Source of the DNA: Gammaproteobacteria bacterium
GTDB taxonomy: Bacteria > Pseudomonadota > Gammaproteobacteria > Steroidobacterales > Foliamicaceae
Direction of reading: 5' to 3'
Assembly (NCBI GenBank): GCA_965200225.1
Contig: CBDATM010000001.1
Span: 633,510-697,509 of the forward strand
DNA: 64,000 nucleotides
The notes under the pieces: generated by a model
What the model was told of the DNA's origin: nothing
The model's database searches: none
Seen by the model: the letters and a program-made list of their open reading frames with translations, nothing else
Shown here: in pieces, positions 29,552 to 42,370 of the stretch
Layout: each line of letters begins with the position of its first letter
Numbering within the stretch: the first letter of the stretch is position 1
Made by a program: the position numbers and the translations under genes

Positions 29552-29801
29552 CCCGTGCACCTTGCATTGCAAGGACAGACCATGGATGTTGAAGAGCTCC
29601 GCAAGCGGTTCAACCTTGGTCAATAGTAGACGAGGTGATTTCAAACTTGATTTTGTAGTTCCCCTCCGTGCCTTTACCTGATTCGGCGTTATTGTTCCGA
29701 GGTCGTTTGCCTCGACCCGAACCAGAAACGCGTGATTGAGCCTGCGAGCCCCGCCGCCGTGGCCTCACCCGGAGCGTATCCCGGTCCGGCAGCGATGGCC
29801 A

Positions 29802-32800
29802 TCAGCCCCCATCCAGGATGTCCTTCAGCGTCGTGTGCGACGGGTCCAATTCCACACCGTCGGCGAACTCCGGCGCGATGAACAGGGGGTTGCCGGGCGA
29901 CCAGAGTTCCACGCTTTCGGCGTGCTCCGCGTAGTACTCCGGGTCCGTCGTCACCCGCAGCGGCTTGGACATCCCCGGGGCCAGCAGGCTGTACTCCCGG
30001 CGGCCCATCGGCTGGACCTCGACACCAGGGGCCATGAGCGCGACCGATGCGACGATCCGGTCCAAGTCTTCCATGGTGACGGTCGGCTGCGGACGCGCCG
30101 TCACGGCGAGATCGCCCTCCGTCACGGCATCGATGTCGAATCCCGCATCCTGCCGCTTGCCCGCCTCCCGTTCGATGGAGTCGACGAGATTGGCGCGCCC
30201 GCGGGCGTCGCGGCCTTCGCCTTCAAGCACGCTTTGCGAAATCCTGCTGGGCAACCGGGCCAGAATGGGTTGCAGCGGTCCCACCACGGATTGGAACAGG
30301 CCGATGCGGTCCCGGAGGGCGCGGTAGATGTCGGTCTCCACCGTCCCCTCGTAGTGCAGGTTGACGATACGGATGTTCGTGTGCTTCTGACCCAGCCGGT
30401 CGATGCGCCCGATGCGCTGCTCCACCCGCATGGGATTCCATGGCATGTCGTAATTGACCAGCGCGCCGCAAAACTGGAAGTTCAGGCCCTCGGCCGCGGC
30501 GTCGGTGCACAGCAGGATTTCGGCTTCGCCGTCGCGGAACCGCCGCTTGGCGTCATCCCGGCCGATGCGCCGCCAAGCGCCATCGGCACCGGGCGCCTCG
30601 CCACCGCGCCCGGAGAAGCAGAGCAGTTTCCACTCGGCGTCCTTGAGTAGTTCACCGCGCAGGAAGTCCATGGTGTCGGTGTATTGGGTGAAGACCATCG
30701 CCTGGACGTAGTCCGTCCGGCGAAGCTCGTGCAGAACGTCCTTGAGGCTGTCGAGCTTGCTGTCCGGCGGCAGGCCGTCCATGGCCAAGAACAGGCGGTC
30801 GATATCCGCCTTCCGCTCGTTGGCGAGGGCTTCGCGTTCGAGGCGCGCCACCTCGTCCGCATCCACGATCTCGTCCTCCGCCTCGTCATCCGGCAGGTCG
30901 TCATCCGGGCTCGGCAACCGCGGCGTCCCGTCGGCGGCGATGGCGTCGCGCCGTTTCCGCAGGGTCTCCCGGAGCGCCATGAAACTGCTCGCGATCCGTC
31001 GGCGGTAGACCGTCATGACAAACCCCACGGCGGTGCGCTCCTTGCCGCTCGTCTGGCTGTAGGCGGTGGCGATGTAGTCCTCGACCGCCTCGTAGACCGC
31101 CCGCTCGTCCGCGGCCATCTCCAGGAAGCGGTCCTCGACTTGGCGCTTGGCGATCCGCGTCGTCATCATGCCTTTCTGGAAGTACCCCCGCAGCAGCTCG
31201 CGGGTGTTCCGCGACACCAACCGGCGCACCGGGGTGCCCGCCCGCATGATCTTGACCGCCGCCCGGCGTTCCGCGGTCTCCAGTTGACGGCGCGGAATAC
31301 TGGCCGCGTCGCGCAGCGCGCGCAGCACCTTTTTGGTCTTCAGGCGCGACAAACCCGTGAGCCGCTTCGCATCCGCCGCCCCGACGACGCCGTGCGCGCG
31401 TTCGACCGCTTGGAACAGCGACGCCATCCGTTCCATCGCCTCCGCCGAGGGGCTCGGCTGTTCGATGTCGCTGAAGAAATCGAGAAACTCGCGCTCGGTC
31501 CATTCGGGCGGCAGGCCAAGCAGGTCGAGCAGATCCCAGACCTCGATGGGATGCACCTGCATGGGCGTGGCGGTGAGCAGCACCAGCCCCTCGGCGCGTT
31601 CCTTCAGGCCGTGCATCAGTTTGAGCAGGGTGTTGGGGCCGCCCTCGCGCTGGCTACCCGCGCCGCGCCGCCGGGCGTGATGCGCCTCGTCGAGCACCAC
31701 CAAGTCCCAAGGTGCCGCCTGTTCCAGTAGCTCCGCCGCCCGGTCGCCGCGGCGCATCAACTGGCTTGACGCGATGACGGCGGGTTCGCGATGCCATTCC
31801 CCGCGTCCGGCAGCGCGCTCATGGCGGCCAAGCAACGCCGGCGCCGGGTACCATGTCAGCTTGTCGCGGTGGTAGATCGGCCAGTTGAGGTTGAACTTCT
31901 CCCGCAACTCGATCTGCCACTGGCCGAGCACAGCCTTGGGCGCGAGGATCAGGATGCGTTTGGCACGCCCGGCGAGCCATGCCTGCCTCAGCAGCATGCC
32001 CGCTTGGATGGTCTTGCCGAGCCCCACCTCGTCGGCGATCAGGAGCCTGGGCGGCCAGTTGTCGTAGAGGCGCTCGAACACCCTCTCCTGATGCGGCCAA
32101 GGATTGACGGCCGCGGTCGCCTCGCCGACCCGCTTGCCGCCGTGCGGACACGCCGGCGCCTCCCGGATGAACTTCCAGACCCGTGCCCGCAGGTCGCCCA
32201 CCGGCGACGGAGCGCGTGTCGATGCCGGCCGCGGCGCCCGCCCGGCATCGCCAGCGGGCCGCTTCGACGGTTTGTCGGTCGGCTTGCGCTCCAGACGGCC
32301 CGGCATGTTCGTTGCCGGCCTGAAGCGCATCAGGTCTCGGCGCGCCGCCTCCGGGATGTCCATCACGATCACGCGCTTCGCCTTCCCCGCCCAGATCCGT
32401 GCGAAGCTCGCCTCTTCCTGGTCAACCCGTCCGGGTTCGGGTCCCCAGCTCGTGTAGACGCCGATGCCCTCCCAGTTCTTCTGCCAGCCGGCGTTCGTCT
32501 CGTTCAGGCTTCCGGTCCATGCCAGCCGGTCGCCGACCCGATCCTCTACGATACCGGTCTTTTCATGGAAGATGGCGTTCTCCGTGATCGGCGCGCCGGC
32601 CGCGTCGCAGGGTACGGCGACCTTCACTTCCAGAAATCCGCGCGCAACCATCCATGCCAGCAATTCCAACGCGCCGACCGATGCCGAATCAGGCGGGTCG
32701 AGCGGCAAGCTCGCGAGACGCCGCTCGACAAGTTCGCGGAGTTCCTCGCCCCGTTCGATTGCCTCGATTTCCGGCGGCTCCAGGGTGCAGCCGACGACGA

Positions 32801-32990
32801 GCCTCATGCGGCCGTCGTTTCGCACCAGACCTTCAATACCGCGCGCCGCCAGCGCCAGGGCGCCGGCGTTGAAATAGCCCGTCAGGCGGTCGTAGCGCTC
32901 CGCTTCCTCAAGGGCAGGAATGTAGAACCGCTGGACGAGGTTGCCGCCCTCGACCGTGTACTTGAGTTGCCATTCGCGATCCCGAAGCAT
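29802..32990 (-). CDS. PLD(HKD)-nuclease domain fused to SNF2-family helicase (defence-island helicase)
   Basis: 1062 aa. The N-terminal HKD motif is IFHEKTGIVED. SNF2 motifs are LLIADEVGLGKTIQAG, VVLDEAHHARR and LLCTDAAAEGLNFQ...NYDMPWNPMRVEQRIGRIDRLGQ. The start lies 3 nt after the methyltransferase stop. Confidence 0.9.
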   Translation of the reverse strand: MLRDREWQLKYTVEGGNLVQRFYIPALEEAERYDRLTGYFNAGALALAARGIEGLVRNDGRMRLVVGCTLEPPEIEAIERGEELRELVERRLASLPLDPPDSASVGALELLAWMVARGFLEVKVAVPCDAAGAPITENAIFHEKTGIVEDRVGDRLAWTGSLNETNAGWQKNWEGIGVYTSWGPEPGRVDQEEASFARIWAGKAKRVIVMDIPEAARRDLMRFRPATNMPGRLERKPTDKPSKRPAGDAGRAPRPASTRAPSPVGDLRARVWKFIREAPACPHGGKRVGEATAAVNPWPHQERVFERLYDNWPPRLLIADEVGLGKTIQAGMLLRQAWLAGRAKRILILAPKAVLGQWQIELREKFNLNWPIYHRDKLTWYPAPALLGRHERAAGRGEWHREPAVIASSQLMRRGDRAAELLEQAAPWDLVVLDEAHHARRRGAGSQREGGPNTLLKLMHGLKERAEGLVLLTATPMQVHPIEVWDLLDLLGLPPEWTEREFLDFFSDIEQPSPSAEAMERMASLFQAVERAHGVVGAADAKRLTGLSRLKTKKVLRALRDAASIPRRQLETAERRAAVKIMRAGTPVRRLVSRNTRELLRGYFQKGMMTTRIAKRQVEDRFLEMAADERAVYEAVEDYIATAYSQTSGKERTAVGFVMTVYRRRIASSFMALRETLRKRRDAIAADGTPRLPSPDDDLPDDEAEDEIVDADEVARLEREALANERKADIDRLFLAMDGLPPDSKLDSLKDVLHELRRTDYVQAMVFTQYTDTMDFLRGELLKDAEWKLLCFSGRGGEAPGADGAWRRIGRDDAKRRFRDGEAEILLCTDAAAEGLNFQFCGALVNYDMPWNPMRVEQRIGRIDRLGQKHTNIRIVNLHYEGTVETDIYRALRDRIGLFQSVVGPLQPILARLPSRISQSVLEGEGRDARGRANLVDSIEREAGKRQDAGFDIDAVTEGDLAVTARPQPTVTMEDLDRIVASVALMAPGVEVQPMGRREYSLLAPGMSKPLRVTTDPEYYAEHAESVELWSPGNPLFIAPEFADGVELDPSHTTLKDILDGG

Positions 32991-32992
32991 TG

Positions 32993-35932
32993 TCAGTCGT
33001 GATCGTTGCGCCAGAGAGCGAGCTGTTCCGGCTCGTCAATCCGGTCGCGGTAGGCAAGGCAGCGGAGATTGTAGAGGACTTCAAAGTCGCTTCCCGATGC
33101 CGCCGCCTCGCCTTCGAGATCAATGCCCGTGAACGTCTTGGAAGGCGGCAGCACTTCCAGCACCGCTTCGAGCGCAGCGAAAAAGCGCGGTTCCCGATCA
33201 ACCTGTGCGTCAGCCAGCAGTTCGCGAGCCGCGGTCAGCGAGCGCAGCCGGGCCATGTTGGCGGCGTGATGGATGGCATCGATCATCCCGCGAGAGCCGT
33301 CGGGAGGTCCGAGCGCTCCCCTGGCCGCTCGGCGTTCGCTGCCCCACAGGGTGAAATCGCTTCCCTTCTTCGCGGCCAGGCGGCTGACAATATCGCGGTC
33401 GAGATTTGCCCCTACGGCGCGGGCGAGCCGCAGCGCCTCGTCGTAGGAAAACTTCGGTGCCCGAAAGGCATCCCAGGCAAGCACGAAGAAGGCGGTCGCA
33501 GGATCGAGATCAGCATCGGCCTTGAGATGCGTCAGCTTCTCCAGGCGCCAGCGCTTGACCTCGCGCCGCGCGGTGTCGAGCGCGTCCTCGGGCGTGGCCG
33601 CATAGGGGTCCCACTCGTCCTCGCGCTGCGCCGGCTGCCGACGCCTTCGGCGTTCCTCCGGCCTCTCCCGAGGCGTGCCGCGCTTGAGCGGCCAATGGCG
33701 CGAGAGCTCTTCGAGCGCCGGTCCGAAGGAGGCCAGATAGAGATCGACACCCGTGATCCCTGCCTCCTGAAACTCCCCGATCCGCGCGCGAACCGCCTTC
33801 GCCACCCGGGGTTCCACGTCCTCCCAGTAGACGACTTCACTGGAGTCGTCCCGGTCGCCGCGCGGGCGGCAGACCAGGAAGACCGTGCTGTTGGCCGCTG
33901 CCTTGTTGCGGATGTGCAGGCTGCCCTCGGCCTCGGTGTTCACCGGCCACGATGCGGTAATCGCGAAGCCCGCCTCCATCAGGCCCTTGGTGAGCGCGTC
34001 CCAGGCGCCGGTCGCCTTGTGGGTGAACATGAGCGTCATGATGCCGTCGGGCTTCAGCACCCGGCGGCACTCGGCGAAGATCGACGCCATGCGTTCCTGG
34101 TAGTCGCGGCCGGCGAGCGCCCTCGCGCCCTTCTCGCCCCGGAAACGCGCGGGATTGGCCACCGCCTCGTTGTGCTTGTCCGTCAGATGCCGTCGGAAGA
34201 GTTCGGGGAAGACATGGCCGGCGGTGCGCTTGAGCCAGACGTAGAAGAAGTCCGACAGCTCGGCGTACATGACGTTGTCGTAGTAAGGCGGGTCCATCAC
34301 CACGACATCGATGCTGGCGTCCTCGATGTGGTCGAGGCTGTCGCCCGGCTTGCACGAGATGGTGATCGAAGGCGCTGCGTACCCCGTCGCGCCCGCGCCG
34401 ACAAACAGGTCGTCGTTGTCACCCACTGCGCCGGGACGCACGAGCGCGACGAGCTCGTCGATGCACTTGGCGGTCTGGCCGATGGCCCAATCGTAGCCGA
34501 GCCCGACGATGAGCGGGGCCATTTCGGCGTAGGACCACTTGAACGCGAAGTCGTGACGGTCGAACTTGCCCGCAATGACTTCGCGTTTCGGTATCTATCG
34601 CGTCATTCGAACGTTGTAATTCAGCAGCTTGTCGAGCGAGAGCGCCAGATACCCATACGCCGCCTTGCGAACATCGCTCAGTTCGCCCCGCTGCCGGTCG
34701 GCTTCGAGCATCTCGCGGAAGACCTCGACGCCGGTGCCGTGACAGAGAAGCTGACGCGGCGAGAACAGGTCGCGCCAGAGCGGCATGCCGTACTGTATGG
34801 GCCGGTCGTCATTGCTGTCCGTGGGAAACCGTTCGCTCGGCACCATGTCGAGCGCCTCCCACTCGGGGAGCTTCTCTGCGAGCCGTGCGGCGATCTCGGC
34901 GCTGTTGTCGTCTTCGGGACGCGGCGCCCGATAGCCGCGCACCCACTTCGGCTTGCCGAGCTTGCCGGACTTGAGCACCCGGTCGTCGCGCCGCTTGTAG
35001 ACCACGGCATAGAGCTGCTCCCCCATCCCCCCGGCCTGCGCCTGCGCCTTGATCTCGTCGCCGTCGATCACCCGCCCGCAGTCCGGATACGGACACGTCC
35101 CATCCCCCCGCGCCACCGTCCCCGCCGACTGCTTCCGCACGTTCTCCACGATCTCGAAGGAACACATCCGCCCCTCCGACCCCGGTCCCGATGCAAGCTC
35201 CGGCTTCAGCTGCACCTCGGTTCCGCCAGGTGCGAGCCGCCAGTTCGGGGAGAGCGGCACTAGGCCCGCGCAGTAGGGGCAAGAGATGGTGCGCGCCCAG
35301 AGATAACCGTCTGGCCGGGAGTTTTCTTCGGCTTCCACCGGATAAACTCCCGCAAGGCGTTCGCGAATGATCGCCGTTAACTTGGCACCGATTTCGTCCA
35401 CGAGTGTCTTGACTTCATTTCCGTGCTTACTGGGCCATTCAAGCGTGGCATGCTCGATCAACGCGGCAACCGGGTTCAGGTCGTTCGCCAATGTTTCCAG
35501 CCCGAGACGGACACTCTCAAATGGCACACTGCCGCCACCCGCAGTAGGATCGAGGAGAGCAGTGCCCTTAGCTATGCGCTTCGCGAGCCAAGTTCTGTCA
35601 ACATTGTCTGGCGTGTATCCGAATGCCCGTGGATACCCGTATGCCGCTGCTCCCAGCCGCTTCCCTTTCCGGGTGGCGACAGCAATCCGCTTCTTCGCCT
35701 CGACCGGATCCCCGTGAATCCCCAGCACATGCAGAAACTTCTCGCGATCCGCATCCGCGGGAAGCAACGAGGCCAGAACGGCGGCCCGCGCCGCCACCAG
35801 CGGCCGCCGCGCCCACCAGACGTGCAGATAGTACGTGGGAGGCAACGCGGTCATGGAACGGCGCTCGCGAATGCTCTCTTCCCCCAGAGCCGCGATCGGC
35901 AGCCAGCGCTCGATCAGGCGAACGTCCGTCAT
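32993..35932 (-). pseudogene. DUF1156 (COG1743-type) Zn-ribbon DNA methyltransferase interrupted by a single in-frame TAG
   Basis: The N-terminal part (34595..35932) has the DUF1156 hallmark YYLHVWWARRPL, SAM motif LLDPTAGGGSVPFE and a Zn ribbon CPYC...CPYPDC. The C-terminal part (32993..34522) has motif IV VVMDPPYYDNVMYAELSDFFYVWLKR. Both ORFs are in the same frame (36013-34522 = 1491 = 3x497). They are separated only by TAG at 34595-34597, and the sequence between them reads on sensibly (IPKREVIAGKFDRHDFAFKWSYAEM). Confidence 0.85.
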
Positions 35933-36423
35933 GGCTGCCTCCATCCAGTGCGGAAATTCAGGTCGCGCAACATCTGGAACGTGTGGATGCACCTTATGCC
36001 GAAAGTTTTGCACACATCCGGCAGATGCCGGTTGGCCCGTTCACGCGCGGGCTTGGAAACCTCCGTGGTGACCACGGTAATTTCCTCCTTGGCGGCGAGC
36101 GCGTGGGCTACCAGGAACGGGTCGGCACCAACTTTCAAAAGCTCTTCCTCTCGGAGATCAGGAGCATAGCCTTCCGCCACAGCCCTTTGCACAACGCTTG
36201 GCTCCGATTCCCGGGGCCACCGGAGGACGGATTTGGCTTGCTTTACCCACTCCACAAGATCACCCCTTCCGCGGACGATTTCCTCGTATATTTCGATCGG
36301 CATCTTCGCCCGGCCTGATTCCGCCTGGTGCAGCAGCCAATCCCAAAACTCCGGCACTCGATCCAGCTGATAGTAGTCCCGGCCCGCATCGATCAGGACA
36401 TTGGCGTCGAGGAGATGGGTCAA
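35929..36423 (-). CDS. DUF4411 PIN-like nuclease
   Basis: 164 aa. (M)THLLDANVLIDAGRDYYQLDRVPEFWDWLL...IEIYEEI...DLVEWVKQ...DPFLVAHALA matches the DUF4411 pattern. A TTG start lies 6 nt after the ImmA-like stop, with AGGGA as RBS. Confidence 0.8.
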   Translation of the reverse strand: MTHLLDANVLIDAGRDYYQLDRVPEFWDWLLHQAESGRAKMPIEIYEEIVRGRGDLVEWVKQAKSVLRWPRESEPSVVQRAVAEGYAPDLREEELLKVGADPFLVAHALAAKEEITVVTTEVSKPARERANRHLPDVCKTFGIRCIHTFQMLRDLNFRTGWRQP

Positions 36424-36429
36424 GATCCC

Positions 36430-37584
36430 TTATCCCGCCAATACGGGCCCAACCTGCGTCGGCTTGACGCCGAGCACCACAGCGGCGCGTCTGGTGGGCA
36501 ATGAACGCTCCGCCAGAGAGCGGGCGACCAATTCGAGCATTGCTTTCCCCACGCGGTGACGCCTGACTGTGTAAAAAGCGGGCCCGCCTTTGGACTCCCG
36601 GTTCTTGAATCTCTGCCTCTGCCTTTGAGAGAGCCATGATCGCCTAAATCCCTCCGCCAGACGTCGGTATTCGGCTTGCCCGATGTGCCCGGCCCGCAAG
36701 AGCCTATAGGCGAACAGCGTCCTGCTGACATTCCATTCCTTGGCAATGTCGGCTATCTCCGCAGCAAGATCGTTCCGGGTTGCGCGAAACTCCCTAATGG
36801 GTTTTTTCGGGAGCAGGAACCTGCTGGCGACATCGTCGCAGAATCGCTCCACCTTCGAGTCCCCGGCGGTGGAGGAACAGGCGTTTCGGCCCAGCAGCAG
36901 ATGAACAAGTTCGTGTACGAGCGTGAAGCACCAAGCGGTCTTGGCGTCGTTGTTATTGATAACGATGAAGGGCGCCAGCGGATCCGACAGCGCGAGGCCG
37001 CGGAACGCGGTTGTGTCCAGCGCCGTATGATGGCTGCCGAGATCGCCTTTCAGAATGACGAAAACCTGCGCGCCCTCGGCGGCCTCCCGGAGCCCTTTGA
37101 AGAGGGCCTCCGCACCGAGATGCCTCATGGGCGCGACATCCCCAAGCAGTTGCCGCACCTTGGACAAGCCGCGGCGGACGCCTTGGTCCAAGGTTAGGGT
37201 GCCGATGAAGGGAACCCTCGGCGCGTCCTCGTCCGCCAGAATCTCGTGAACCAGGCTTTGGCTGGCTTGCATATCCCGCACCAGCATGTTGATCCGCGCT
37301 TGATCGGAGCGCGAACCGGAAAGAGAACGGAACTCAGAGTCGCGCAAGCTCGGTTTTGGCGGCCGCGCCAAGTAAAAGGCGATCAGCGGCTGTCGATAGA
37401 TGTCCACCATCCGCAACAACAACGGCTGCGTTGGCTCATGTTCGCCACTCTCAAGGTCGGTCAGGCGGTCAAGCGGCGTTTTCCCATGTGCTTCCTTAAT
37501 CCTCAGTTTGCGTGCGGCTTCGGCCTTGGACAGGCCAGCCCGGTTCCTGGCCCAAGACAGAATTTCGGGGTTCACGGCTGGCAT
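36430..37584 (-). CDS. Xre-type HTH fused to ImmA/IrrE (COG2856) zinc metallopeptidase
   Basis: 384 aa with an N-terminal HTH (ILSWARNRAGLSKAEAARKL) and a HEXXH site (FTLVHELVHLLLG). A strong AGGAGG RBS lies upstream. Confidence 0.85.
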   Translation of the reverse strand: MPAVNPEILSWARNRAGLSKAEAARKLRIKEAHGKTPLDRLTDLESGEHEPTQPLLLRMVDIYRQPLIAFYLARPPKPSLRDSEFRSLSGSRSDQARINMLVRDMQASQSLVHEILADEDAPRVPFIGTLTLDQGVRRGLSKVRQLLGDVAPMRHLGAEALFKGLREAAEGAQVFVILKGDLGSHHTALDTTAFRGLALSDPLAPFIVINNNDAKTAWCFTLVHELVHLLLGRNACSSTAGDSKVERFCDDVASRFLLPKKPIREFRATRNDLAAEIADIAKEWNVSRTLFAYRLLRAGHIGQAEYRRLAEGFRRSWLSQRQRQRFKNRESKGGPAFYTVRRHRVGKAMLELVARSLAERSLPTRRAAVVLGVKPTQVGPVLAG

Positions 37585-37659
37585 GTTGCCGCCTCCTGGG
37601 GGTAGTCGCCCGGAACCAGTGGCCGACCTTCGGCCAATCGGGCATCGCCCCTCAGCCGA

Positions 37660-38010
37660 TCAAGCGGCATAGTCAAGCAGCCGACCGGCGCTGCCGAAGG
37701 CTTCGACCGTCCACCCTTCGTTTGATCCCATCGAACGGCGCAGTCGAACCCGGCCCTCGCTGCCAGCTAGCCGTCGAACGCGCGCACCGCTCTCGCGCAG
37801 GGTCCTCTCCACCGCCTTGATTTCGTGCTTAAAGGGCCCGGGCTTTGTCTTGCTGGTGATCCAAGCGTGCGGAGTTGCTTGCAGTATGCGCTCAGCATCC
37901 TGTGCGGTTGGCAACTGGCCACGTCCCCGGCGCCAAGGTGCAAGCACCGCAACGGGTTCGGGTTGCAGCATCTGCTTCCACACTCCGTCGATCTCTGGTT
38001 GGATCCGCAT
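37660..38010 (-). CDS. Hypothetical protein (116 aa), no recognisable domain
   Basis: The ATG at 38010 is preceded by GGAG and lies 8 nt after the stop of the upstream ORF. It has the same strand and composition as the operon. The longer track ORF (to 38424) overlaps the upstream gene and is unlikely. Confidence 0.45.
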   Translation of the reverse strand: MRIQPEIDGVWKQMLQPEPVAVLAPWRRGRGQLPTAQDAERILQATPHAWITSKTKPGPFKHEIKAVERTLRESGARVRRLAGSEGRVRLRRSMGSNEGWTVEAFGSAGRLLDYAA

Positions 38011-38018
38011 ATGCTCCG

Positions 38019-38498
38019 CTACCGTTTCGGCTCCGTCAACAGGCACCGCAGCGCGGTCAGCACCCGGCGGGGATGCTTGCGGTGCATGGCCATGCCCAGC
38101 CAGTAGGCTGCCTCCTCGCGCCCCATCGCCTCGATTCCTTCCGCCACCGCGCGCATGTTTTCGCGGCTGCGCATCGGCGCCAGGGTGCGGAACAGGAGCC
38201 CCAGCGCCAGCGCGAGATCCTCCGTCAGGGCATGGCCCCGCCTCGTCGCATTGGCAGGCCGTCCGAGCCTGACGCCAGCCTGCGAGAGCTGTTTCAGCAC
38301 CTGATGCTCGACCAGCTCGAGGTTGCGTCCTCGCAGCCCGGCGACGCGTGCTGCACAAGTGACATGCGGTGAGGCGGGCGCCGGCAGTTGCCAGATCTCG
38401 TACTCGGCATCCGCCGACCCGCAAGGCCGAACCCGCAACTCGTAGCGCGGCGCGGACTCCGGCATCTCGACGCTGGCTATGCGTTCCAGCCGCGCCAT
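38019..38498 (-). CDS. Hypothetical protein (159 aa) translationally abutted to the DUF499 ATPase
   Basis: The junction is TAA-ATG with zero spacing to the DUF499 stop (38499-38501). The sequence is helical and Arg-rich (…GREEAAYWLGMAMHRKHPRRVLTALRCLL). It could correspond to the small accessory protein family often found with DUF499/DUF1156 genes (DUF3780-like?), but I cannot confirm this. Confidence 0.55.
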   Translation of the reverse strand: MARLERIASVEMPESAPRYELRVRPCGSADAEYEIWQLPAPASPHVTCAARVAGLRGRNLELVEHQVLKQLSQAGVRLGRPANATRRGHALTEDLALALGLLFRTLAPMRSRENMRAVAEGIEAMGREEAAYWLGMAMHRKHPRRVLTALRCLLTEPKR

Positions 38499-41400
38499 TT
38501 ACGCTTTGGCTTCGGCTTTCGCCAAAACATGGGCGGCGCCGCTCGCGAACCGGCTGAGTTGCTCGGCCTGTTTCTCCGCAGCGTCCCCTTTCATCGGCAG
38601 GCCTTCCTTGAAGGTCAGCTCGAACCCGACCTCGAGGTCTGTCGAGCTGGCATCGCGAAGCTGTGGTTCCAGGAATTCGCGGACCGGTTGCGCATCGCTC
38701 ACCGGACCCCGGAACTCCAGTTCGAAGGTTCCGCCGTCGCGCGTCTCGTAGCCACCTTTCACGGTCACGATCACGACCGCGCCGGACACGGCGCCGACTG
38801 CACCGAGGAGCCGGAATGCGTGGCCGGCCTCGAACAGGCGGATGGTTAGCGATGCGATGGCTTCCACCTTCTTTGCCCGAGCCTGTTCCCAGAGCTGCAC
38901 GAGCGCTTCCCGGAGAATCCCCTCGGCTGCAAACGAGCCGGGTTCAGACCTGGTCACGTGCGGCGCACCTGGAGGAGAGCTGTATCCAGGGACTGCCGGT
39001 TCACTCACCTCGCCGTGCCCGGGAGCGGTTGATCGCGTTTCCGGCGGCTCGGCGGGCCTCCGTGGCCAGATGCCCTTACGCATCGCATAGTCCATCGTGA
39101 AGATCATCGACTGCTCGTCGATCTCGATGTCCGCCGCCGGGTCGTCCGGACCGAACAACAGGTCTCCGCGCCGGTATATGTACTCGCCTTGTTCAATGCC
39201 TTGCCGGACGCCGCGAACGAAGATGTCGTCGCCCACCAAAATGGGCAGTGCTGGATCGCGCCGAAATTCGTTCCTGAGCGACAGGGACGTGATGCTGCCT
39301 TTTTTGAGTGGCGTTCGGTCGCGCACATAGGCAGGCGAGTCCGGCTGATCCTCCGACAGCCGGAGCTTGTTCAGGTCGCGCAGTGCCCGCACGACCTGCT
39401 GTTGCCCGGCTCCTGGCTTGTCTGAGGCGGAGTGCGTGTCGATGGCGGTGTGCGCCAGATCGATGTCGCTTGCGTCAATGCGATTGCGCGATGGATAAAA
39501 CAGGTGCCGGTAGCACTGCTGGATGGCGAGGGCGAGCTCCTGCTCGGAGCGCTGCTCCATCTCGCGCACGCTGGCCTGTTGATGCTCCGCCAGCTCGACG
39601 AGACGCTCCGGCTTCTTCATTACCCGCAATGCCAGCCGACGATAAACCTTGCGGCGCATGTCCTCCTTGCGCGCCTCCTCGGCGGCTACGAAGACCAGAT
39701 GGTTTCGGAGCACGCGCAGCGCCGAGCCTTCCGATCCCTTCCGCTCGAAGATGCTTTCGATCAATTCCGGCACGGCTTCAACGGATGTCCCGATGGTTAC
39801 GGCCTCGAATCCGAGAACGACCAGCTTCGGCCGTCCGTCCGCAATGTCGTCGGCCACGTCGAACGGGCCGCCGGGAAACGGCACCGCGTCGAACGTCCTG
39901 CCGTCGAATATCTCGCGGATACGGCCGTTCAGCTCCGCGCGCGCTTCCCCGGCATCGACATGGTCTTCCGTGCGCCGGATGATCCGGGTCAGATTGGCTT
40001 CGGCCAGAAAGCGCATCGGTGCACCGGGCCGGTCGTCGAGATAGGCGGACTCGGCGATGAACTTCTTGCGCGCCTCTTCCACAAAGCTGATGTCCGTCGC
40101 GGGACCCAGCACCGAATAGCGCAGCCGCTCTGGCGAGATACCTTTCAAGGAATCGTTGAAGGCGAGCGTGTGCATGAAGATCGTGCGGGCGACATAGGCG
40201 GCATAGGGCGGCAGGCCCCCGTGATGCGCGGTGTCGATCTCCTGGGCCAACGCCGCCTTGCTTCCGGGTCCGGCGGACACATCGTTGGAAATGGCCGGCG
40301 TAAACGCCGACTGCTCCAGGCGCGTCACGATTTCTTGCCGGATTGGCTCGTGTCCCGGGTCCATGTGGTGCAGGTGGATTGCCATGGCGTCGGCCGGCCG
40401 TTCCCGCCACAGATGCGCCACCGTGCGCGCCAAGAGCCGCAACATGCCCCGCACCCGCTGGAAATTGCCGAGTGTGGCGGTCTTGGATGTCAGCGTCTCC
40501 AGCACTTCCGGGTGTAGGGGATAGCTCGACCGGAAAGCTTCGACGGCCTCGGGCCGGGTGGCGGTTTCGGGCAAAGCATCGCCGTGGGTCGTCCATTTTG
40601 TCCCGTAGGCTGCCGCCGCGTCATTCGCCGCCTTGTCGTCGATGGATTCGAACAGGCGGCGCCGAAGAACCTGGACCGTTTCATCCTCTTCGGTCGGGTT
40701 GAGCAGCGTGGCCTTGCGCGCCGACACACTCTCGGCTTCCCCCATGCCGTCGGCGAGGAACTGGTTTTCGTTTTTGTAGGCGTTGGTGGCCCGACCGTCC
40801 TTGCCTACGGCTAGCGTGTAGACGAGTGCCGCGTTGTCGGTGCCCTCCACGGCCTTGAACAGAGAGGTCAGAAACGCCGTCAGTTGATCGCCGCCGTTGC
40901 CGAGTCTGTTTGCCTTGCGCAGATAGATAGACAGCTCGTCGAGCAGAATGAGTGCCGGTTCGCCGCCGAACAGTTCCCGCATAGTCCCGGCGCCCGGAGC
41001 GACCCCGGCCTCGTCGCTCTTGCGTATTCGTTCGTAGCCGTCTTTGCCGCCGAGCGCGGAGGCGATCTCGCCCCAGGGAGTGAATGCGAGATGCCCTCCG
41101 TCCATCCGGCGGCCGTTTGCCGGGTCCGCGTTCTCGCCATCGAAGGCCGCGATGCGAACGCGGCCCCTCGGCAGCAGAGCGGGCTTCACAAACTCCTCGA
41201 TCCTCGGCACATTAGCGCCGCTCCGAGCGGCGTGGCACAGGGCGATCAGGCCGTGCGATTTGCCTCCGCCATAGGAGGTGTCGAGGCGGAATATCGACGC
41301 GACTTCGCCGCCCGCGCCGCTCAATCGGCGACAGACATGTGTCAGCAGGTTCTTGAGGCCCCTCGTCGGATAGGTGTTGTCGAAGAAACGGACCGGATCG

Positions 41401-41528
41401 GCATAGTCGTCGCTTCCCTTACCCACAATCACCTGCGCCAAATCCGCCGCGAACTCGGCCTCCGCCAACGCGCCTGTCAAGACATCCCCACGCGGGCGGC
41501 AAGAATCGAATATCGTCGGGACCGTCAT
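38499..41528 (-). CDS. DUF499 (COG1483-type) P-loop ATPase, BrxC/PglY-like
   Basis: 1009 aa. Walker A-like FRLDTSYGGGKSHGLIAL and Walker B ALILLDELSIY, with a long helical C-terminal region typical of DUF499 proteins. Confidence 0.85.
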   Translation of the reverse strand: MTVPTIFDSCRPRGDVLTGALAEAEFAADLAQVIVGKGSDDYADPVRFFDNTYPTRGLKNLLTHVCRRLSGAGGEVASIFRLDTSYGGGKSHGLIALCHAARSGANVPRIEEFVKPALLPRGRVRIAAFDGENADPANGRRMDGGHLAFTPWGEIASALGGKDGYERIRKSDEAGVAPGAGTMRELFGGEPALILLDELSIYLRKANRLGNGGDQLTAFLTSLFKAVEGTDNAALVYTLAVGKDGRATNAYKNENQFLADGMGEAESVSARKATLLNPTEEDETVQVLRRRLFESIDDKAANDAAAAYGTKWTTHGDALPETATRPEAVEAFRSSYPLHPEVLETLTSKTATLGNFQRVRGMLRLLARTVAHLWRERPADAMAIHLHHMDPGHEPIRQEIVTRLEQSAFTPAISNDVSAGPGSKAALAQEIDTAHHGGLPPYAAYVARTIFMHTLAFNDSLKGISPERLRYSVLGPATDISFVEEARKKFIAESAYLDDRPGAPMRFLAEANLTRIIRRTEDHVDAGEARAELNGRIREIFDGRTFDAVPFPGGPFDVADDIADGRPKLVVLGFEAVTIGTSVEAVPELIESIFERKGSEGSALRVLRNHLVFVAAEEARKEDMRRKVYRRLALRVMKKPERLVELAEHQQASVREMEQRSEQELALAIQQCYRHLFYPSRNRIDASDIDLAHTAIDTHSASDKPGAGQQQVVRALRDLNKLRLSEDQPDSPAYVRDRTPLKKGSITSLSLRNEFRRDPALPILVGDDIFVRGVRQGIEQGEYIYRRGDLLFGPDDPAADIEIDEQSMIFTMDYAMRKGIWPRRPAEPPETRSTAPGHGEVSEPAVPGYSSPPGAPHVTRSEPGSFAAEGILREALVQLWEQARAKKVEAIASLTIRLFEAGHAFRLLGAVGAVSGAVVIVTVKGGYETRDGGTFELEFRGPVSDAQPVREFLEPQLRDASSTDLEVGFELTFKEGLPMKGDAAEKQAEQLSRFASGAAHVLAKAEAKA

Positions 41529-41633
41529 CGTTTGCCTGTCATCCGTTTGCTTTCTTCACCCGGACCCACCGCGTTCGCGTCCTTCCATCGGTCGCTGGGC
41601 CGGGAACGGCGCCAGGCGCAGCTGGCTGTCAAC

Positions 41634-42065
41634 CTATGATGTTGGCTGCGAGGTTGCTCCCCTGGTCCCAAAATAAAACCCCACAATTGAACCCGTCAAC
41701 GTACCGAACGCAGTCAGAGCACTATCGAAATTTTCGCCCAAAGCCGGGGAGCCAAGCCCTATTACATTGACAAATGAACCGATCACCGCCAACGCGAGAA
41801 TGGCCCGTATCGACCCTTGAGGAAGATTCAGTCCGCGCAACTCCTTTCCAGCATTGGCGCTACTGTTTTTTCTTCCTGCAACGTAAGCGTAAACAGCGGC
41901 ACCTACGGTGACAAGCAACATCCAAACACATTGCGCGACTACTAACGGAGAATTCCAATCCAGTGGATCTGGAGATTTTGAAGACCCATTTTGGGCAAAC
42001 GCATCCAATCCAGCAAAATGCATTGTAATCAATGCCAAGACGATGGTTGTCATTTTCCAGTTCAT
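41634..42065 (-). CDS. Small membrane protein, unknown function (low G+C), first gene of the island
   Basis: 143 aa with a signal peptide (…AGLDAFA/QN) plus 3 TM helices and a GGAGG RBS. Composition is roughly 45-50% G+C by eye, against about 65% for neighbours. Confidence 0.55.
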   Translation of the reverse strand: MNWKMTTIVLALITMHFAGLDAFAQNGSSKSPDPLDWNSPLVVAQCVWMLLVTVGAAVYAYVAGRKNSSANAGKELRGLNLPQGSIRAILALAVIGSFVNVIGLGSPALGENFDSALTAFGTLTGSIVGFYFGTRGATSQPTS

Positions 42066-42370
42066 CAGCGCGGACCTCCGCTTATGTCAAATGCACAAGT
42101 TTGCCGCAATCCTCGGGCCGTATCAAAACATATGGCCCGCCTCGCTTTCCTCAAATATTCTAGGGCATCGAATCCATCGTTGGGACTGGAGCGCTTGTCC
42201 CAACGATGGATTAGCGGCGCAACCGGCGCTGGCGCAGTTCCTGCTCCGGCAGGAAGGCGAGCGGATCGTCCAGCAAAGCCCGGATTGCCGCGGCCAGCTG
42301 GGCCGGCTCGACAACAGCGAGCCGGTCCATTCATCCAGCGCCCAAATAACGCCGTTACGCGAAACAAGCA

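Follow-up and report, generated by a model that had tools for sequence, protein, structure and literature searches.

A gammaproteobacterial Hma/Type-2 BREX-related operon of the DUF7680 clade, probably in decay, with a toxin-antitoxin-like passenger

The helicase-methylase-ATPase (Hma) family has been reclassified as DUF499-centred BREX-related (BR; BREX, bacteriophage exclusion) systems, among them a Type 2 that consists of a DUF499 ATPase, a DUF1156 methylase, an HKD-helicase without a TUDOR domain and a standalone DUF3780 protein (98% of taxa) (Rakesh & Krishnan, NAR 2026, PMC12839542). Both the system type and the embedding of other genes within it are already published (Payne 2021, 2024; Rakesh & Krishnan 2026). 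The locus described here occupies 29802-42065 of a 64,000-nt stretch (the window) from a Gammaproteobacteria bacterium of the Foliamicaceae (GenBank assembly GCA_965200225.1, contig CBDATM010000001.1, positions 633,510 to 697,509). It is very probably a horizontally acquired, restriction-modification-like anti-phage operon (Hma/Type-2 BREX-related, of a clade marked by a DUF7680 protein) with a toxin-antitoxin (TA)-like passenger, in a copy that is decaying and whose core is most likely non-functional. The locus and its edges contain the following features, in the direction of the operon:

42247-42365, minus strand: remnant of a DUF3368 (COG2405) PIN-like gene, frameshifted, C-terminal ~50 codons
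41634-42065, minus strand: membrane open reading frame (ORF), 143 aa
41525-41625, minus strand: 3′ remnant of an HTH_17 gene (HTH, helix-turn-helix), ~last 30 codons
38499-41528, minus strand: DUF499 ATPase, 1009 aa, intact
38019-38498, minus strand: DUF7680 protein (159-aa ORF), 159 aa
37660-38010, minus strand: 116-aa chimeric ORF, deletion scar
36430-37584, minus strand: Xre-HTH plus Peptidase_M78 (ImmA/IrrE) protein, 384 aa
35929-36423, minus strand: DUF4411 PIN-like protein, 164 aa
32993-35932, minus strand: DUF1156 methylase, 979 codons, disrupted
34595-34597, minus strand: in-frame TAG within the methylase, codon 446
29802-32990, minus strand: phospholipase D (PLD, HKD)/Snf2 helicase, 1062 aa, intact

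The eight co-directional minus-strand ORFs are separated, in operon order, by 105, 0, 8, 75 and 6 nt, an ATGA overlap and 2 nt, which reproduces the tightly packed eight-gene arrangement (spacing 0-105 nt) given in a preliminary description of this DNA. The family calls made there (DUF499, DUF1156, PLD-Snf2, HTH-ImmA and DUF4411) all recurred in Pfam and PADLOC profile searches, and matches to the HmaC, HmaB and HmaA profiles uphold its assignment to an Hma-type system. Its statement that other systems are often embedded in Hma agrees with the published survey, in which 62.7% of 1,485 Hma systems carried embedded genes and 96.7% of these genes were co-oriented (bioRxiv 10.1101/2024.01.29.577857). 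Its remark that the mechanism is uncharacterised is dated, the family having been reclassified (PMC12839542) and the HmaA helicase of Halomonas having been found to defend against phage T4 (PMC11232893).

The comparison set comprised ~90 related loci in all (designated L plus a number), with DUF7680 contexts taken from a protein collection (three), reference genomes (80) and plasmids of cultured organisms (four: Sinorhizobium medicae pMl1, Picosynechococcus PCC 7002 pAQ6, Rhodococcus and the haloarchaeon Salinirubellus). The order DUF499, DUF7680, variable cargo, DUF1156 and PLD-Snf2 recurs in every context examined, from metagenome-assembled genomes (MAGs) of many phyla to cultured organisms; Sinorhizobium pMl1 carries it as a compact four-gene operon with no gene between DUF7680 and the methylase. 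The nearest relatives of the window's locus are in Alphaproteobacteria MAGs, the four core proteins are 66-86% identical to their counterparts in L001, L002 and L005, and all four core genes are intact in ~22 related loci.

Close relatives (L006-L085) come nearly all from MAGs across many phyla, in lineages that include Alphaproteobacteria, Binatia, Entotheonella, Vicinamibacterales, Latescibacterota, Poriferihabitaceae and Chloroflexi, and their core proteins are 61-86% identical, a level that would imply recent inter-phylum transfer of DUF7680-type systems. The taxon names, and these alone, suggest sponge-symbiont communities as the setting of these relatives. Some genomes hold two DUF7680-type copies: L011 and L017 (OZ240210.1), L032 and L033 (OZ253576.1), L064 and L085 (CAXXVU020000002.1), and L012 and L059 (one MAG). 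L011 and L017 are the sole such pair with both gaps between DUF7680 and methylase visible, and there L011 carries cargo (a three-gene metallo-β-lactamase (MBL) cassette, see below) and L017 none.

Two of the three large proteins are full length. The DUF499 protein (Pfam DUF499, 1.6e-33; PADLOC HmaC, 5.6e-98 over residues 10-783) has a Walker A motif (GGGKS, aa 87) and a Walker B motif (LLDEL, aa 195), is 75-85% identical over its full length to the proteins of L001, L002 and L005, and is an intact HmaC-type STAND/ORC-like AAA+ ATPase; its match to NCBIfam DUF499_antiphage (2.8e-61) falls far under the equivalog cut-off. The helicase, 70-81% identical over its full length to the same three loci, matches Pfam SNF2-rel_dom (1.4e-18), Helicase_C (4.4e-18) and PLDc_2 (1.1e-4; 22.5 bits against a 27-bit cut-off), and in PADLOC BrxHI/II (3e-71, the best), the PbeA N-terminal region (3.8e-67), PLD_Helicase (3.1e-67) and, in part, HmaA (4e-54). 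Its match to NCBIfam phospholipD_antiphage (3.8e-106) is also under the equivalog cut-off. A single HxK...GSxN signature (HEKTGIVED, aa 142; GSLNET, aa 160) is present, together with helicase motifs I (GLGKT, aa 323), II (DEAHH, aa 434) and VI (QRIGRIDR, aa 858). PLDc_2 spans residues 132-200, the PbeA N-terminal model residues 2-439 and the Snf2 region begins at ~297; with the N-terminus thus filled by the PLD domain, we infer that no TUDOR domain is present.

The third large protein is interrupted. The methylase (Pfam DUF1156, 1.7e-15; N6_N4_Mtase, 1.1e-5 on the C-terminal half, at 25.9 bits against a gathering cut-off of 26.7) matches PADLOC HmaB with both halves (7.9e-34 and 4.2e-34) and the NCBIfam anti-phage-associated DUF1156 model far under its equivalog cut-off, and is predicted to be an HmaB-type DUF1156 N6-adenine methyltransferase with a zinc-ribbon target-recognition insert. 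Intact homologues of 980-988 aa are 76-80% identical. The only in-frame TAG of the 979-codon frame lies at codon 446 (TGG to TAG), in an alignment column that is W in L001 and L002, a conserved Trp. It separates an S-adenosylmethionine (AdoMet)-binding motif (DPTAGGGS, aa 128) and the zinc ribbon (CPYC, aa 218; CPYPDC, aa 280) from the catalytic DPPY at aa 547. The next ATG lies 24 codons after the stop, with no Shine-Dalgarno-like sequence before it by eye. The methylase could be scored in 48 related loci, of which 36 have it intact and 12 partial, and none has a simple in-frame stop; decay of the methylase is common among relatives, but this type of lesion is unusual.

The gene that sets this operon apart from the described systems is the 159-aa ORF, which is a DUF7680 protein (Pfam PF24728, 7.3e-44). 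Its start abuts the DUF499 stop, it directly follows DUF499 in all contexts examined, and it is intact in 78 of 80 related loci. Because of this invariant position and retention, DUF7680 appears to be a conserved fourth core subunit and not cargo. There are 2956 homologues, the best 120 of which are 75-88% identical. DUF7680 should be treated as core when such loci are called or cloned, and tools that score it as ‘embedded’ mis-score them.

DUF7680 fills the slot held by DUF3780, of similar size, in canonical Type-2 BREX-related loci; in canonical loci of Acinetobacter, Bacillus, Thiodictyon and Pseudomonas plasmids DUF3780 sits exactly there. Here, no match to Pfam DUF3780 was obtained at E ≤ 10. 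An AlphaFold2 model of DUF7680 (predicted local distance difference test score, pLDDT, 88.9) has four strands and five main helices and found nothing below E = 0.1 in a PDB fold search, and DUF3780 has been described with four strands, five main helices and no PDB relative (PMC12839542). Models of the two proteins share the element order β1 β2 β3 α1 β4 α2 α3 α4 α5 at nearly the same positions, a likeness that is no more than suggestive, as the shallow alignment behind the DUF3780 model gave a pLDDT of just 51. Profile-profile comparison (hhalign) counts against the link, with probabilities of 0.1% (small profiles) and 0.33% (larger profiles).

DUF7680 is not mentioned in the literature searched, nor in the supplementary files of PMC12839542, and its replacement of DUF3780 is apparently an unreported point. 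A wider reading is offered tentatively, at somewhat less than even confidence: DUF7680 would be an unreported fourth core subunit marking a broadly distributed clade of its own among HKD-helicase DUF499 systems (Alphaproteobacteria, Cyanobacteria, Actinobacteria, haloarchaea and many MAG phyla) and a very remote homologue or analogue of DUF3780, the junction between DUF7680 and the methylase would be a dedicated cargo-exchange site, and the three-gene MBL cassette found there would be a new defence system. DUF3780 proteins are likewise unusually conserved, with 73-90% identity among Enterobacteriaceae, Acinetobacter, Bacillus and Desulfobacterota, which parallels DUF7680.

Among described systems the locus is closest to Type-2 BR, with which it shares gene order, three large proteins (DUF499, zinc-ribbon DUF1156 and an N-terminal-HKD helicase without a C-terminal REase) and a ~160-195-aa α+β protein encoded directly after the ATPase. 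Type-2 BR corresponds to the NCBIfam ‘anti-phage-associated’ set of DUF499, DUF3780, DUF1156 and phospholipase D, as on A. baumannii pSSMA17_1. The ATPase, methylase and HKD-helicase that define the type are all found here, whereas a standalone DUF3780 is not and DUF7680 stands in its place; the large proteins share only ~23% identity with the canonical set, far under the NCBIfam equivalog cut-offs, and the helicase is ~160 aa longer (1062 vs 905 aa). On present profile evidence the locus may be filed as a Type-2 BR/Hma member, even though by sequence the DUF3780 requirement fails.

With Hma it shares matches to the HmaA, HmaB and HmaC models on one strand and same-orientation cargo, in related loci including Septu, between hma genes. 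It differs from Hma in its helicase (N-terminal HKD, against the C-terminal NOV_C PD-(D/E)xK nickase of the tested Halomonas HmaA), in the constancy of DUF7680 within its clade, where PADLOC counts every gene other than HmaABC as embedded, and in its pseudogenised methylase. Four ORFs lie between HmaC and HmaB here and HmaB is split; the Hma survey was limited to three embedded genes and no pseudogenes (bioRxiv 10.1101/2024.01.29.577857), limits under which this locus would probably be missed or flagged. Type-3 BREX (BrxC, PglXI, BrxHII, PglZ) has a homologous ATPase, methylase and Snf2 helicase, and the C-terminal half of the methylase matches PADLOC PglXI (7.8e-18); the effector here differs in being a fused HKD nuclease, and PglZ, BrxA, BrxB and BrxL are lacking.

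Three other assignments were rejected. For canonical BREX, none of the nine proteins of the region matches PglZ, BrxA, BrxB or BrxL in PADLOC, and the flanks are housekeeping genes. For DISARM, there is no DrmB, and the only similarity is of the DrmD/DrmA Snf2 type in the helicase, with DrmA weak and ranked 13th. For Pbe/Dnd phosphorothioation, only the PLD N-terminal region is PbeA-like and PbeBCD are absent. The absence of PglZ, BrxL and DrmB from the nine proteins accords with the earlier view that the island is neither BREX nor DISARM.

Between DUF7680 and the methylase the related loci are highly variable. In the 58 loci with both ends in view this gap ranges from 20 nt to 9.9 kb and is <1 kb in ten. 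Clustering of the gap ORFs yielded recurrent co-oriented cassettes, single or stacked:

Septu PtuAB: ~10 loci (3.7e-109 / 1.1e-60)
Menshen NsnABC: ~8 loci (~1e-100 each)
AbiL-like / PDC-M38 ATPase: 3 loci (PADLOC match)
TIR plus SLOG: 2-3 loci (Pfam matches)
AAA_22 ATPase plus STAND-TPR pair: 5-8 loci (no PADLOC match)
three genes ending in an MBL-fold protein: 14-17 loci (weak PADLOC matches only)
HTH-M78 with or without DUF4411: 4 loci plus the window (Pfam and PADLOC matches)

The interval is a recombination hotspot that stacks independent defence cassettes in one orientation, and its pattern of cargo agrees with the published embedding of genes in Hma. It offers a sharply defined source of candidate defence cassettes, among which the MBL cassette and the AAA_22 plus STAND-TPR pair are frequent and have no strong PADLOC match.

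The commonest cargo is the MBL cassette, which encodes ~235-aa and ~205-aa proteins without a Pfam match followed by a ~370-aa MBL-fold protein. It was found at L051:10484-12896 and also in L007, L011, L013, L018, L023, L024, L038, L044, L055, L059, L074 and L079. Its third gene matches Pfam Lactamase_B (1.1e-10) and only weakly PADLOC LmuA/RTasMBL, and the cassette looks like an undescribed candidate defence system. The AAA_22 ATPase (~427 aa) and STAND/AAA_16-TPR protein (~1000 aa) are encoded at L081:13576-17790 and in L023, L037, L053 and L070. At L018:15262-16877 an E1-like ThiF/DUF6791 protein and a DUF6527 protein are encoded between an MBL cassette and an ImmA/DUF4411 pair.

In the window this interval holds a trace of the MBL cassette. 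The 116-aa ORF has no Pfam, PADLOC or NCBIfam match, and tblastn places it on the 3′ end of the gene for the 370-aa MBL protein in the three-gene cassette. Pairwise alignment to L051, L055, L007, L013 and L018 resolved it as a chimera, with residues 1-9 (MRIQPEIDG) equal to the N-terminus of cassette gene 1 (MRI[EK]PEIS.V) and residues 10-116 corresponding to residues 262-370 of gene 3 (the C-terminal 109 residues). It is the scar of an in-frame deletion of ~2 kb and no gene of its own. Comparable remnants occur next to ImmA genes elsewhere: in L009 ImmA and DUF4411 come after a 90-aa fragment of NsnA, and L063, 76% identical in nucleotide sequence to the window across the junction between scar and ImmA, has a remnant of the middle cassette gene and a truncated ImmA, with DUF4411 lacking. 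L053 also carries a remnant. The preliminary description had taken the four ORFs between ATPase and methylase as either embedded cargo or unrecognised core subunits, which holds in part: DUF7680 belongs with the core and ImmA plus DUF4411 are intact cargo, and the 116-aa scar is neither.

The sole intact cargo here is the HTH-M78/DUF4411 pair, most likely a RosmerTA-like TA or abortive-infection module. The HTH-M78 protein matches Pfam Peptidase_M78 (5.7e-14) and, under the gathering cut-off, HTH_31 (7e-5), as well as PADLOC RmrA (3.3e-20) and capP (3.7e-11), and has an HExxH motif (HELVH) at aa 224. RosmerTA was reportedly described by Millman in 2022; the resemblance lies in the match of the window's antitoxin to RmrA. 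Starting 6 nt downstream, the DUF4411 gene (Pfam DUF4411, 1.4e-38) encodes a protein that keeps the invariant acidic residues D6, E44, E48, D101 and E121 in alignment with L009 and L018. No more than 4 of 80 related loci have ImmA; counterparts of the pair are found in L009 (ImmA 58% identical), in L063 (degraded) and in L018, where a more distant ImmA (25% identical) is accompanied by a DUF4411 of its own. A three-component TA system has been predicted where DUF4411.1 lies downstream of an HTH-DUF955 fusion (PMC5499597, Matelska 2017), and the HTH-DUF955(ImmA)/DUF4411 TA systems (Matelska 2017; Makarova 2009) resemble the arrangement here, an Xre-HTH-M78 fusion followed by a small nuclease-like toxin gene. 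The HTH-protease would repress or neutralise the PIN-like DUF4411 nuclease until a phage cue removed it, and the pair may still be active.

A further lesion lies at the 5′ end of the operon. A small HTH_17 gene lies ahead of DUF499 in the closest relatives and overlaps it; in the window tblastn with the L002 protein recovered only residues 61-91, in a reading frame that was checked, and DNA homology to the related loci begins at ~41594, the 5′ part of HTH_17 and everything upstream being lost. HTH_17 was considered as a universal core gene and rejected; because only ~9 of 76 related loci have it intact (at least five others retain a comparable stump), it is better regarded as a probable accessory regulator. 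The small HTH_17 gene (L002:6687-6962 and equivalents) matches PADLOC mad1 of the MADS system (7e-7).

A mechanism may be outlined from homology to Type-3 BREX and the published model. The methylase would mark a host motif and supply sequence specificity, the ATPase, probably with DUF7680, would assemble on or sense unmodified incoming DNA, and the Snf2 motor would deliver the HKD nuclease to cut it; since the helicase has a single HKD motif, the nuclease would have to dimerise. Loss of the methylase would be tolerated if, as in BREX, the methylase were also required for restriction, which would be the simplest explanation for an intact nuclease-helicase beside a broken methylase. The pairing provides a natural test of methylase-dependent restriction in this family.

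Four lesions accumulate in the region, namely the TAG in the methylase, the shortened HTH_17 gene, the deletion scar in the cargo and the DUF3368 remnant of a truncated second module, and the catalytic motifs are otherwise intact. This copy is most likely dead as a restriction system, and repair of the TAG may not be enough to restore it, because HTH_17 is truncated and the cargo cassette has collapsed as well. The annotation is corrected accordingly to a four-gene Hma/BREX-related operon with one TA-like passenger and gene remnants on its flanks, probably no longer a working restriction system.

Several points weigh against this account. An error in assembly or consensus could account for the TAG, as could a minority allele; all remaining core ORFs are full length, which is unexpected after long-standing inactivation, and truncation of HTH_17 need not silence the operon. 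The DUF4411 protein matches no toxin model in PADLOC, RmrT included, in which it differs from RosmerTA. In the only Hma tested, a Type-1-like Halomonas system whose helicase has a C-terminal NOV_C nuclease, the helicase alone defended and no methylase-dependent protection was seen (PMC11232893), and restriction-modification logic is for the DUF7680 clade a model and not a result.

The best-surviving alternative, which we nonetheless regard as unlikely, is a fully functional four-gene system with TA cargo, the TAG being a sequencing or assembly error, a minority variant, or read through or bypassed (e.g. by two assembling methylase fragments). Full-length DUF499, DUF7680 and helicase genes with intact motifs would fit, as would the single base that separates TAG from the conserved TGG and the atypical nature of a lesion that no related locus shares. 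Yet the given sequence reads TAG, and the stop parts the AdoMet-binding motif from DPPY with nothing resembling a Shine-Dalgarno sequence before the next ATG. Three further independent decay events surround it (HTH_17, cargo scar and DUF3368), and decay of the system is common among relatives, with a partial methylase in 12 of 48 scorable loci; an inactivated copy is accordingly preferred.

Somewhat less probable again is a core that defends by its helicase-nuclease alone, as an abortive-infection or nicking system independent of methylation, in which methylase and ATPase are regulatory or dispensable and methylase loss costs nothing. Halomonas HmaA alone lowers T4 propagation ~100-fold, phage grown on HmaB-expressing cells gain no protection, and hmaB and hmaC are missing beside 15-20% of hmaA homologues (PMC11232893); the intact nuclease-helicase by a broken methylase in the window fits non-lethal loss of the methylase. 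That work, however, concerns another helicase architecture (C-terminal NOV_C, not N-terminal HKD). The four genes here are co-inherited at 61-86% identity across phyla and the methylase keeps all its catalytic motifs in relatives, which argues for a selected role, and BREX-like methylase-dependent restriction would explain a tolerated loss equally well. A larger eight-gene system, with all four ORFs between ATPase and methylase as unrecognised core subunits, would suit their tight co-directional packing and the core status of one of them, DUF7680, but is highly improbable given the ten of 58 loci with a gap of <1 kb, the Sinorhizobium operon with no gene there, the scarcity of ImmA (4/80) and absence of the membrane ORF (0/80) in relatives, and the origin of the 116-aa ORF as a fusion of two unrelated cassette genes.

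The genes on both flanks are housekeeping genes, as the preliminary description had it. G+C content over the whole window is 0.636; it falls to 0.57 at the left edge and 0.49 in the membrane gene. No direct repeats were found around the island and no integrase ORF was seen in the region; the tRNA genes of the window lie at 62-64 kb only. A promoter and terminator scan was uninformative because counts were no higher than in shuffled sequence.

At the right edge, what had been taken for ‘junk’ is a conserved gene plus the DUF3368 remnant, the latter detected by tblastn with residues 115-154 of the L094 protein, in two frames, between the thioesterase and membrane genes. The membrane ORF, previously counted as an island component, matches nothing in the 80 related loci and no curated family. 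It has 47 homologues, and in L094 and L095 the membrane gene comes after genes for an HTH-M78 protein and a DUF3368 PIN-like protein; by blastn, window positions 41653-42355 are 73.5% identical to L094 7697-8431. The membrane ORF lies outside the Hma-type system and is part of a second, 5′-truncated ImmA/DUF3368 PIN-like module. In L095 the DUF3368 gene has itself collapsed to a 40-aa internal-deletion product. The membrane-protein family (~145 aa, no Pfam family) is represented at L094:8001-8444, L095:8001-8453, L096:5001-5426 and L097:5001-5465, and also occurs in other defence-island settings: L097 has it within a Type-1-like Hma, and L096 next to an ABC ATPase.

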